A stretch of DNA of 49,804 nucleotides from a virus (lineage: Duplodnaviria > Heunggongvirae > Uroviricota > Caudoviricetes): IMG/VR virus record IMGVR_UViG_2579779034_000011, positions 1 through 49,804 of that record. One strand, given 5' to 3'. This document shows, piece after piece, positions 23,429 through 28,659 of the stretch; the first letter of the stretch is position 1; each line of letters starts with the position of its first letter. The position numbers were made by a program, and so were the translations under genes. Below the pieces are notes generated by a model. The model did no database searches, was not told the DNA's origin, and worked only from the letters and a program-made list of their open reading frames with translations.

Positions 23429-23457
23429 TTGACTTTTTGAATAAAGTTGGGTAAATT
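23429..23457 (+). promoter_or_regulatory. late promoter pR' (-35 TTGACT, 17-bp spacer, -10 TAAATT)
   Basis: sequence TTGACTTTTTGAATAAAGTTGGGTAAATT matches the lambda pR' region. Confidence 0.75.
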
Positions 23458-23657
23458 TGACCCAAGAATGGCAGATTTATATCCGTTCACATTCTTTCAG
23501 CTTTTACCCACCTCATCTTTAAGTTCTAAGCGCACTGACATGCGCATCATAAACTCGAGAGCACATAGGAATAGAGCCTGAGAAATATCGCTTTTGGCGA
23601 CTTCTCTCGTGGTGATATTTCTATGTCAGCAGGCTCTAATATCTATGTGGTTCGCCT

Positions 23658-24149
23658 ATGTTAAAACGTGAAGATGCATTGAGACTTTTTAATTACAATC
23701 CAGATACTGGAATTCTTACATGGAAGAATCCACCTCGGTCCTCTAGATTTATCTATGGCGCTGTTGTTGGCTATAAAACAAATGGATATCTGCAGGTAAA
23801 ACTTTATGGAATGCGGCTATATGTCCATAGAATTGCATGGCTGATGGTTTACAATGATTGGCCAACCGATGTGATTGACCATATTAATGGTGATAGGTCT
23901 GATAACCGGATAGCCAATCTTCGTGTTGTTACTAACACTCAAAACTCATGGAACAGCAAGATGAGGAAAAACAATTCATCTGGTGTGAAGGGAGTGACTT
24001 TTAATTCTGCTGCAAACAAGTGGGTTGGAAGAATTAGAGTCAATGGTAAAAGGATTCATGTAGGGTGTTTTGACGATATCGAGGAGGCTAGAAAGGCAAT
24101 GGAAAATGCCAGGATAAAATATCATGGTGAATTCTCCAGTATGGGATAG
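23658..24149 (+). CDS. HNH homing endonuclease with AP2-like DNA-binding domain
   Basis: VIDHINGDRSDNRIANLR HNH motif; C-terminal GVKGVTFNSAANKWVGRI AP2-like; absent from lambda at this position. Confidence 0.8.
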   Translation: MLKREDALRLFNYNPDTGILTWKNPPRSSRFIYGAVVGYKTNGYLQVKLYGMRLYVHRIAWLMVYNDWPTDVIDHINGDRSDNRIANLRVVTNTQNSWNSKMRKNNSSGVKGVTFNSAANKWVGRIRVNGKRIHVGCFDDIEEARKAMENARIKYHGEFSSMG

Positions 24150-24282
24150 ATGGGTTAATTCGCTCGTTGTGGTAGTGAGATAAAAAGAGGCGGCGCTTAC
24201 TACCGATTCCGCCTAGTTGGTCACTTCGACGTATCGTCTGGAACTCCAACCATTGCAGGCTGAGAGGTCTGCAAAATGCAAT

Positions 24283-24340
24283 CCCGAAACCGTTGTGCAG
24301 GCTCTAACTATTACCTGCGAACTGTTTCGGGATTTTTTCT
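24283..24340 (+). terminator. tR'-like terminator ending the lambda 6S-RNA-like leader
   Basis: CCCGAAAC ... GTTTCGGG stem followed by ATTTTTTCTTT. Confidence 0.7.
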
Positions 24341-24342
24341 TT

Positions 24343-24417
24343 GGGTCAGTCGTATAAAGGTCATTACGGAAGGCTGTTAACCTTCTTATCGTGGTTCGAG
24401 TCCACGCTGTCCCGCCA
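24343..24417 (+). tRNA. tRNA-Asn-like (anticodon GUU), possibly degenerate
   Basis: hand-folded cloverleaf: perfect anticodon stem GAAGG/CCTTC with loop CTGTTAA, perfect T arm CGTGG-TTCGAGT-CCACG, 3' CCA; one mismatch each in acceptor and D stems. Confidence 0.55.
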
Positions 24418-24422
24418 AATAT

Positions 24423-24498
24423 GCTGGTTTAGCTCCAATGGTAGAGCAGTCGCCTTGTAAGCGAATGGGTAGCGGTTCAAGTCCGTTAACCAGCACCA
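24423..24498 (+). tRNA. tRNA-Thr (anticodon UGU)
   Basis: hand-folded cloverleaf: 7-bp acceptor GCTGGTT/AACCAGC, D stem GCTC/GAGC, anticodon loop CTTGTAA, T loop TTCAAGT, 3' ACCA. Confidence 0.7.
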
Positions 24499-25958: not shown

Positions 25959-26161
25959 TTTTTTTGCAAATCACAAAGTCCATTTAATGAGCCTCGCGAT
26001 GCGGGGCTTTTTTATGTCCGCAGTAAACGCGCATCTCACGCGCATATTACATCACCCGAGCCTTTCAGAAAGTTGAGCCTGAGAACTGCCGTATATGGTG
26101 GCGACCATCTCGGGGCGGCTTTTCTGTGAGACAGGCTCACTTTCTAAAAGGTAAAGACGCT

Positions 26162-26680
26162 ATGAATCATCAATTGGCTAATCTCGATTTCCGGGACATG
26201 GTGGTTGTTTCTGGTGATCGCGTGATCACAACCTCCCGCAAGGTAGCAGCTTACTTCGACAAGCAGCATCACCACATCATTCAGAAAATCGAAAAGCTAG
26301 ACTGTTCGGATGAATTTCTAACCAGCAACTTTTCGCGGGTTACCTATGAACACAAGGGTAATCAGTATGTTGAATATGAAATTTCCAAAGACGGCGCGAT
26401 GTACATCATCATGTCGTTTACCGGCAAAAAAGCTGCCGCCATCAAAGAGGCGTTTATCAAAGCATTTAATTGGATGCGTGACAGGCTGATGGAGATGGCT
26501 CACTCATACCAAAGAGAGCACAACGAGTTAATGCTGGAGTTCATGAAGGAAAAGGATGTTGCCAGTATGTCAGGACGCTTGCTGAACCGCTGGGGCAGGA
26601 TCAAAAAACCGCAACTCATAGCAAGAATCGAAAGGCTTGAGCAGCAGGCGCAAATATCGATCCCCGGACTGCCAAAGTGA
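26162..26680 (+). CDS. Rha-family phage regulatory protein
   Basis: start at MNHQLANL; N-terminal DFRDMVVVSGDRVITTSRKVAAYFDKQHHHIIQKIEKL matches the Rha N-terminal domain as recalled. Confidence 0.6.
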   Translation: MNHQLANLDFRDMVVVSGDRVITTSRKVAAYFDKQHHHIIQKIEKLDCSDEFLTSNFSRVTYEHKGNQYVEYEISKDGAMYIIMSFTGKKAAAIKEAFIKAFNWMRDRLMEMAHSYQREHNELMLEFMKEKDVASMSGRLLNRWGRIKKPQLIARIERLEQQAQISIPGLPK

Positions 26681-28164: not shown

Positions 28165-28659
28165 ATGAATATGGCAGCACCAAAGGGCAACCGATTTTGG
28201 GAGGCCCGCAGTAGTCATGGGCGAAATCCTAAATTCGAATCGCCTGAGGCGCTGTGGGCTGCTTGTTGTGAATACTTCGAGTGGGTGGAAGCTAACCCGC
28301 TATGGGAGATGAAGGCGTTCTCGTATCAGGGTGAAGTGATACAAGAGCCTATCGCCAAGATGCGAGCGATGACCATTACCGGCCTCACTCTGTTCATTGA
28401 TGTGACGCTTGAAACATGGCGCACATATCGCCTGCGAGAAGATTTATCTGAAGTCGTTACGCGAGCAGAGCAGGTCATCTACGACCAGAAATTCTCTGGC
28501 GCAGCCGCTGACCTTCTCAACGCTAACATCATCGCCCGTGATTTGGGCCTCAAAGAGCAGTCGCAAGTTGAAGACGTGACACCTGATAAGGGAGATCGCG
28601 ATAAGCGGCGCTCTCGTATCAAGGAGCTATTCAACCGTGGAACTGGACGCGATTCTTGA
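28165..28659 (+). CDS. 3: terminase small subunit (P22 gp3-like); start may be the Met at 28171
   Basis: [48 protein letters not shown] ... matches P22 gp3. Confidence 0.9.

Follow-up and report, generated by a model that had tools for sequence, protein, structure and literature searches.

An HNH-AP2 endonuclease gene and a structured leader RNA in the late leader of a lambdoid prophage

Architecture of the pR'-tR' leader

The stretch of DNA analyzed here (hereafter, the window; 49,804 nucleotides (nt), positions 1 to 49,804 of IMG/VR virus record IMGVR_UViG_2579779034_000011) is a lambdoid (P22-like) prophage, in which an HNH-AP2 endonuclease gene and a structured leader RNA lie between the late promoter pR' and the 6S-RNA-like leader that ends in the terminator tR'. 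Alignment of the window with an occupied relative (Escherichia coli GPEC1240), a near-identical insert-free prophage (E. coli ETEC1730) and lambda (alignment A1) defined the extra DNA as 682 bp, extending from +8/+9 of the pR' transcript to +4 of the 6S/tR' leader. A preliminary description of the same DNA had recognized pR' and 6S/tR' as matching lambda with about 680 bp between them; the alignment with lambda and an insert-free relative that it called for thus fixes both endpoints, and all of the features that it listed are present where it had placed them. The match to lambda ends with TGACCCAAGAATGG (23458-23471) and resumes at GATGGGTTAATTCG (24149 onward), and the empty site in lambda and ETEC1730 reads TGACTCAACGATGGGTTAATT without interruption. 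The exact ends of the insert fall somewhere within an imperfect repeat, GAATGG (23466-23471) at the left junction and GATGG (24149-24153) at the right one, and this GA(A)TGG repeat suggests that the original event was microhomology-mediated. The flanks are ~93–98% identical to insert-free loci, which, together with the hairpin covariation presented below, places these features well beyond chance.

The promoter, the pause-inducing element, and tR' of the lambda-type leader are retained. The -35 and -10 hexamers of pR' are those of lambda, with two substitutions in the spacer that holds the Q-binding element. By lambda homology, the +1 of the transcript is position 23464, which opens the final lambda-homologous stretch ahead of the insert (Table 1); here the pause-inducing element is AAGAAT versus AACGAT in lambda, and the next G/C-rich segment is GGC versus GGG. 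The roles of these elements were assigned from PMC5001585 and from the organization of lambda pR'. From +9 the sequence is foreign, so that +16/+17 are A and T versus C and G in lambda. At the other end, tR' is intact (stem 24280-24334, with arms at 24280-24294 and 24320-24334, and a T-run at 24335-24340), and it lies ~877 nt from +1 versus ~194 nt in a lambda-type leader. The Q-utilisation region is accordingly separated from tR', as had been proposed: the determinants that precede +9 are still present, and tR' lies ~680 nt farther away. No plus-strand terminator was found between pR' or its +1 and the leader RNA, and neither an internal promoter nor a plus-strand terminator was found between pR' and tR'. 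A pair of tRNA genes follows tR', and the holin and endolysin genes follow the tRNA pair. In tR', the inner loop (24296-24319) corresponds to the lambda loop in reverse-complement orientation (TGCAGGCTCTAACTATTACCTGCG versus CGCAGGTAATAGTTAGAGCCTGCA), apparently as the result of an inversion between short inverted repeats that preserved the hairpin. The same loop has 11 nt (GCAGGCTCTAA) in common with the 3' arm of helix P3 of the leader RNA (23629-23639).

The gene in the insert encodes an HNH-AP2 endonuclease, in agreement with the preliminary description: Pfam matches were obtained to HNH_3 (E 5.7e-17) and to AP2 (E 5e-8, just over the curated cut-off), the latter constituting a separate sequence-reading DNA-binding module; Foldseek matches were to AP2 only. 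The AlphaFold model of the 163-amino acid (aa) protein is confident (predicted local distance difference test score, pLDDT, of 94). Residues D74, H75, N77, D82, N83, N87, R89, and N99 are invariant and N96 nearly so among 52 homologues, and the catalytic HNH motif, the lack of which would have pointed to an inactive protein, is intact in sequence. Relatives with <60% identity occur in thousands of phage records, where they are often annotated as homing endonucleases. The protein shares the HNH_3 motif and the conserved His and Asn residues with I-HmuI-type HNH endonucleases, free-standing phage HNH genes (e.g., T4 mobE), and HNH-AP2 fusions, and the gene resembles the free-standing ones in being small and intergenic, in its presence/absence polymorphism, and in having decayed copies. 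However, it lies neither in an intron nor between essential genes of a lytic phage; instead, in a temperate lambdoid phage, it occupies the terminated leader of a late operon that is antiterminated by Q. HNH genes of the HK97 gp74 type, which are needed for packaging, are small genes adjoining the terminase genes; the gene described here instead lies in the Q-S leader, ~4.5 kb upstream of a 500-aa open reading frame (ORF) at 28637 that is taken to be the putative large terminase from its position before a portal-size ORF.

Table 1. Features of the late leader and of the second leader RNA copy in the window
Feature	Position	Strand	Basis or remarks
Q antiterminator gene, lambda type, 207 aa	22763..23386	+	Pfam Antiterm E 2e-57; 99% identical to lambda Q
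pR' late promoter	23429..23457	+	TTGACT, 17-nt spacer, TAAATT; Q-binding element region between hexamers
Inferred +1, pause-inducing -10-like AAGAAT, then G/C-rich GGC	23464..23472	+	Alignment A1
Alternative initial transcribed region brought with the insert, ~55 nt	23472..23526	+	Fold z = -0.9, no significant structure, no terminator
Structured leader RNA copy 1, 135 nt	23527..23661	+	RNAalifold, pair counts; covariance model R1 144.6 bits
P1, copy 1	23530-34 / 23541-45	+	
Pseudoknot 1 (PK1), copy 1	23556-61 (CGAGAG) with 23604-09 (CUCUCG)	+	
P2, copy 1	23562-72 / 23639-49	+	3' strand holds Shine-Dalgarno-like GUGG
P3, copy 1	23573-80 / 23630-37	+	
P4, copy 1	23581-92 / 23611-22	+	
Pseudoknot 2 (PK2), copy 1	P1 loop 23535-40 (CUGACA) with bulge 23624-29 (UGUCAG)	+	
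PK1, five distinct complementary pairs in the family			CGAGAG/CUCUCG, UCAUGA/UCAUGA, CCCGAG/CUCGGG, CACAGAA/UUCUGUG, CCACCGA/UCGGUGG
PK2, six distinct complementary pairs in the family			CUGACA/UGUCAG, CUGACG/CGUCAG, UCUCAC/GUGAGA, UCGCA/UGCGA, UCACAC/GUGUGA, CCGCA/UGCGG
HNH_3 + AP2 endonuclease gene, 163 aa	23658..24149	+	Motif D74 H75 ... N83 ... N87 ... N96/N99 intact
Lambda 6S-RNA-like leader from lambda +4, ending in tR'	24149..24340	+	Alignment A1, inverted repeat
tRNA-Asn(GTT) + tRNA-Thr(TGT), immediately 3' of tR'	24343..24498	+	
Intrinsic terminator ahead of leader copy 2, after Rz-like (spanin) gene	25989..26015	+	
Structured leader RNA copy 2, diverged paralogue	26024..26163	+	Model R1 50.6 bits, E ~1e-11
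Rha + ORF11CD3 gene, cargo of leader copy 2	26162..26680	+	Pfam

The structured leader RNA and its exchangeable cargo

The 135-nt leader RNA that precedes the endonuclease gene has a folding energy of -50.1 kcal/mol, with z = -5.1 versus shuffles, and contains perfect inverted repeats at 23572-23580/23630-23638 and 23581-23589/23614-23622. Analysis with RNAalifold of sixteen distinct sequences, including six HNH-linked types and eight elements of viral contigs lying between endolysin and spanin genes, yielded hairpin P1 and a long helix, P2-P3-(7-nt bulge)-P4. Six nucleotides 5' of P2 pair with the apical loop to form PK1, with which the model comprises 41 pairs (98.9% of 653 cells paired, and seven pairs with compensatory changes), and the covariation score was reached by none of 500 shuffles. 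PK2 joins the P1 loop to the bulge. The evidence for both pseudoknots rests on explicit strand tables of twelve representatives from both subfamilies, those of copies 1 and 2 of the window, which gave the distinct complementary pairs listed in Table 1; the MAFFT alignment of both subfamilies (A9) is out of register in the loops. Overall, four covarying helices and two covarying pseudoknots show that the structure of the leader RNA is real and conserved. Many leader pairs alternate with G-U, which corresponds to an A-C mismatch on the opposite strand, and the covariance model scores the minus strand far lower. Both findings identify the plus-strand RNA as the functional molecule, and a DNA-level cruciform or a minus-strand RNA was rejected on these grounds. 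The long imperfect hairpin noted in the preliminary description is thus present and supported by covariation, but it is not isolated, being the core of a 135-nt double-pseudoknotted RNA that probably sequesters the ribosome-binding site (RBS).

In every member of the family, the Shine-Dalgarno sequence (GUGG in the E. coli-type copy) is located in the 3' strand of P2, and the start codon lies 8–10 nt past P2. RBS-sequestering hairpins are known to limit translation of the T4 homing endonucleases I-TevI, I-TevII, I-TevIII, segB, and mobE (PMC2988022). The leader described here is similar to these in placing a stable RNA structure that contains the Shine-Dalgarno just 5' of an endonuclease start codon. 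However, it is a 135-nt multi-helix RNA with two pseudoknots, belongs to a conserved family that is also found before non-nuclease cargo, and has no detectable internal promoter that would bypass the 5' arm in either window copy. No sigma70-like promoter was detected within either copy, hand-checked -35/-10 candidates being poor, and a T4-style bypass promoter inside the leader was rejected. A 13-codon upstream ORF (MSAGSNIYVVRLC; 23623-23664) begins at an ATG (23623) in the leader bulge, and its stop overlaps the HNH start (ATGTTAA), falling within codons 2-3 of the HNH ORF, 2–4 nt past the HNH ATG. It is conserved in E. coli-type copies and in two of the more distant loci described below (L007 and L147), is fused in frame in a third (L008), and has no ATG in Xenorhabdus-type copies. 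Its role as a conserved leader peptide was rejected, since it is fused, out of frame, or ATG-less in other clades.

No Rfam 15 match was obtained for copy 1 at E up to 1, and copy 2 gave only sub-threshold noise at E up to 10; the families matching neither leader include the twister, pistol, hatchet, hammerhead, and HDV ribozymes, C4, and isrK. At Rfam gathering thresholds, the whole window yielded two tRNAs, C4, and isrK only, all outside the leaders. A hammerhead-like CUGANGA recognized by eye was rejected, because the key G8 is missing in most copies and Rfam gives no match. Literature searches returned no description of an HNH gene in a lambdoid late leader, nor of the leader RNA.

The second, diverged copy of the leader in the window follows a terminator after the Rz-like gene and ends at the ATG of a gene encoding a Rha + ORF11CD3 protein. 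Its pseudoknot strands differ from those of copy 1, yet they are complementary (PK1 CCCGAG/CUCGGG, PK2 UCUCA/UGAGA). The copy-2 subfamily was found in 922 out of 5,426 complete E. coli genomes (~17%) and in 253 phage records, including 74 Stx2a-converting phages, P22-like phages, and phages of Klebsiella and Enterobacter; in phage epsilon34, a leader of this type is flanked by an annotated terminator on one side and a GIY-YIG nuclease gene on the other. A BLAST search with the Xenorhabdus/Proteus-type (clade 2) leader against the phage records returned no match. Throughout the copy-2 subfamily, the leader always comes after a terminator and ends at the start codon of its cargo, which can be Rha, KilA-N, Ant, GIY-YIG, or HNH. 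Three loci are identical over the 135–140 nt preceding Rha (the window), a GIY-YIG nuclease (strain 3359), and KilA-N (strain E308), and their identity stops two bases past the ATG. The cargo genes of the viral contigs encode a Rha protein, a P22-antirepressor-like protein, or another HNH. The interchangeable cargo and the identity that ends at the ATG imply that the leader is a portable 5' module in the order terminator, leader, ORF, and, as judged from sequence, its cargo is a nuclease or an antirepressor-like DNA-binding protein. These modules resemble phage morons (accessory genes between conserved genes that carry their own transcription signals) in being modular ORFs at fixed spots of the late operon with a terminator attached; they differ in the order of their parts, in having no detected promoter, and in a swap junction placed exactly at the start codon. 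The position of the module varies: in the viral contigs L148-L155 it interrupts the lysis cassette, with the endolysin gene on one side and the spanin genes on the other, and in E. coli and Salmonella phages it follows the spanins.

Taken alone, the HNH insertion represents a familiar type of element in a new location; the leader RNA family is the more interesting result. The family, for which neither an Rfam 15 entry nor a literature description was found, occurs in hundreds of phages and in ~17% of complete E. coli genomes. Accessory genes, for antirepressor-like proteins and homing nucleases, are swapped precisely at the edge of this RNA, which also offers a defined molecule for structural and regulatory study. 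Such a leader could be the reason why late operons, although very highly transcribed, can tolerate cargo that is potentially harmful.

Occurrence, relatives, and decay of the cassette

A scan of the 5,426 E. coli genomes for the insert and its flanks found the flanks in 1,236, with the insert at the same site in 16 and the flanks only in ~1,220; no record of the phage record collection carries the insert. The insert is 98.4–100% identical across the 16 genomes, and the full query including flanks is 96.8–98% identical in 14 of them, indicating that the flanks are more diverged than the insert. Occupied loci have two downstream contexts, tRNA-Asn/Thr or lambda-type, and a 100% identical copy of the insert was found in strain AH21A060, where it belongs to a different P22-like prophage located at ybhC. 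In that prophage (L160), the segment 13369-16452 contains a different HNH gene adjoining a DnaB-like helicase gene annotated as three pseudogene pieces, possibly another invasion of endonuclease or intein type in the same prophage. A scan of the genome collection with the 16-mer GCGCACTGACATGCGC gave chance matches only, in unrelated GC-rich genomes.

The E. coli-type cassette was further detected in 16 viral contigs and in three out of four metagenome contigs. Four of the viral copies are decayed with the leader RNA intact: two (L010 and L017) have an in-frame internal deletion that removed the HNH core and left a 54-aa remnant, and two (L014 and L023) have a frameshift resulting in a truncated product of 46 aa. 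Moreover, only 109 nt from the left end of the insert remain in three E. coli genomes, where TAGAGCCTG joins this piece directly to a lambda-type tR' at its distal arm; these remnants are read as deletions between 9-bp repeats. As read from these sequences, invasion, decay, and loss at one site correspond to the classical life cycle of a homing endonuclease gene. Two of the fused loci, in E. coli RMDEC465 (L004, 2460-2640) and FDAARGOS_943 (L005, 2460-2680), keep ~109 nt of the start of the insert up to the TAGAGCCTG-tR' distal arm fusion and have lost the HNH gene, most of the 6S region, and the 5' arm of tR'. These prophages seem to have no canonical tR', and L005 has an additional 46-bp insertion.

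More distant relatives of the cassette were found at five loci, L006, L007, L008, L146 (Xenorhabdus bovienii), and L147, with HNH protein identities of 86, 74, 66, 62, and 56% and leader identities of 96, 89, 83, 76, and 77%, respectively. All five are located directly 3' of a Q-family gene, and lysis genes then follow in L006 and L007, the only contigs long enough. The Q proteins of these loci are 92, 37, 38, 32, and 39% identical to that of the window; with Q identity at 32–39% in four out of five, the cassette is far better conserved than the neighboring Q. From the late promoter to the HNH start, the DNA is better conserved than in the coding region, and the initial transcribed region of the insert is homologous to the equivalent stretch in all five. 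The HNH stop in L006 is followed by a co-diverged 6S-like region, which implies that the arrangement has some age within the lambda-type lineage. L146 and L147 have an intrinsic terminator between the late promoter and the cassette, implying that the placement ahead of tR' is peculiar to the lambda-type version. The view that the gene was inserted therefore holds relative to lambda-type leaders, but the insertion is not a one-off event, since cassettes at 56–86% identity lie beside very different Q genes. Conversely, the relatives placed after Q and the co-diverged 6S-like region of L006 lend partial support to the gene being ancestral in the late leader.

A proposed homing cassette and its alternatives

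These observations are best accommodated, with somewhat better than even confidence, by the insert being a free-standing homing-endonuclease cassette lodged in a Q-dependent late leader. The cassette would consist of three parts: the ~55 nt of foreign initial transcribed sequence, the 135-nt leader RNA, and the I-HmuI-like HNH + AP2 nuclease. At lambda pR', sigma70-dependent pausing at +16/+17 is determined by a -10-like element at +1 to +6 and a G/C-rich segment (PMC5001585). The junction at +8/+9 is just past the Q-binding promoter and the sigma70 pause-inducing element, so Q loading should still work, and tR' would still end unmodified transcripts. In lysogens, pR' is known to be constitutively active and its transcript terminated (PMC7547250). 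Since no terminator separates pR' from the gene, constitutive transcription of the cassette is expected, and a lysogen would contain a pR' RNA of ~877 nt that ends at tR' unless Rho cuts it earlier. This RNA would share its promoter and terminator logic with the short constitutive pR'-tR' transcripts known as lambda 6S RNA and as StxS of Stx phages (PMC7547250), and homologous 6S sequence is retained downstream of the insert; it would differ in its length of ~877 rather than ~194 nt and in carrying a structured leader and a protein-coding gene. After induction, the cassette would become the first cistron of the antiterminated late mRNA. The preliminary description had made the endonuclease the first product of the late transcript, which is borne out by position, but its translation is probably throttled, with the RBS inside a structured leader.

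The most likely function of the leader is this translational throttling: the long P2-P3-P4 helix, locked by two pseudoknots and with the RBS at the base of P2, would hold nuclease synthesis low. Insert-free lambda-type leaders of co-resident or superinfecting phages, or DNA near them, are the presumed substrates of the nuclease, and recombinational repair would then copy the cassette into the cut phage. Constitutive transcription, throttling, the cleavage target, and homing are all inferred here from sequence. The locus shows that a paradigm of regulation, the terminated pR'-tR' leader, is able to accommodate a selfish protein-coding gene with its known control elements kept, and it constitutes a natural test of how far qut can be moved from tR' and of the sequence needed for Q loading past +9. 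The preliminary reading is partly supported, being right in outline but incomplete.

Several points weigh against this reading. The changed bases at the normal pause position could alter Q loading, and Rho could terminate untranslated transcripts, which makes constitutive expression uncertain. The E. coli-type Shine-Dalgarno is weak (GUGG), and simple RBS occlusion would not require anything as elaborate as the double-pseudoknot fold. The leader family also fronts non-nuclease cargo (Rha, KilA-N, and Ant) and is therefore not a homing-endonuclease device as such; given the complexity of the fold and the unrelated cargo, simple occlusion may not be the whole story. Finally, cassette relatives occur in late leaders with non-lambda DNA. 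No one DNA target conserved among them is therefore evident, and the cassette could owe its distribution to mosaic recombination alone.

A bolder proposal is rather unlikely: the leader would represent a new functional RNA class (a double-pseudoknotted sensor, ribozyme, or protein-docking element) that serves as a universal expression-and-exchange platform for selfish and accessory genes in lambdoid late operons, and its conserved DNA would also be the homology arm, or even the cleavage target, through which HNH and GIY-YIG endonuclease genes replace one another and other cargo precisely at the start codon.

Mosaic recombination is central to a further alternative, to which we assign a low probability, that promoter, leader RNA, and first late gene are an ancestral module native to one lambdoid lineage and that the window is a mosaic recombinant formed with no endonuclease-driven mobility. 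It would account for the homology of the initial transcribed region, leader, and HNH gene across six loci with four Q types, for the co-diverged 6S-like region after the HNH gene of L006, and for a leader family that is general in late operons. Nevertheless, it fits poorly with the clean presence or absence of the insert at one site in lambda-type leaders otherwise 93–98% identical, with the short imperfect repeat GA(A)TGG at both junctions, and with a cassette much better conserved than the adjoining Q gene; in addition, the protein is of homing-endonuclease type and its active site is intact.

A similarly low probability is given to domestication of the nuclease for exclusion, whereby HNH-AP2 expressed from an always-on pR' would cut competing lambda-type late leaders and serve the prophage rather than its own spread. 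The unterminated path from a constitutively active promoter (PMC7547250) into the gene would favor such a role, as would the insert-free, target-like sequence in ~1,220 out of 5,426 E. coli genomes. However, just 16 genomes carry the insert, decayed alleles and deletion derivatives argue against strong selection for the protein, the terminator ahead of the cassette in L146 and L147 means that expression in the lysogen is not a conserved feature, and the leader appears built for low translation.

The least probable alternative, that the leader is not a brake but a catalytic, ligand-sensing, or protein-sensing RNA (a self-cleaving ribozyme, a processing site that frees the cargo mRNA, or a riboswitch-like sensor), draws on the two covarying pseudoknots and conserved unpaired stretches such as GGUGGCGAC, on a size of ~135 nt and a fold complexity beyond what RBS occlusion needs, and on the constant position right after a terminator and right before an ORF, but it is countered by the failure of Rfam ribozyme and riboswitch models to match, even with E values allowed to reach 1 or 10, by the Shine-Dalgarno lying consistently inside P2, which fits occlusion, and by cargo that includes no ligand-related genes.

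The homing-cassette reading remains the preferred one for the insert. Of the two other RNA families found in the window, both above the gathering score, isrK, an Hfq-binding RNA, is located at 2063-2140 (68.9 bits) and the C4 antisense RNA at 2221-2308 (81.1 bits); the pair points to an immI-type region of antirepressor control, similar to that of P1/P7, close to the beginning of the window.

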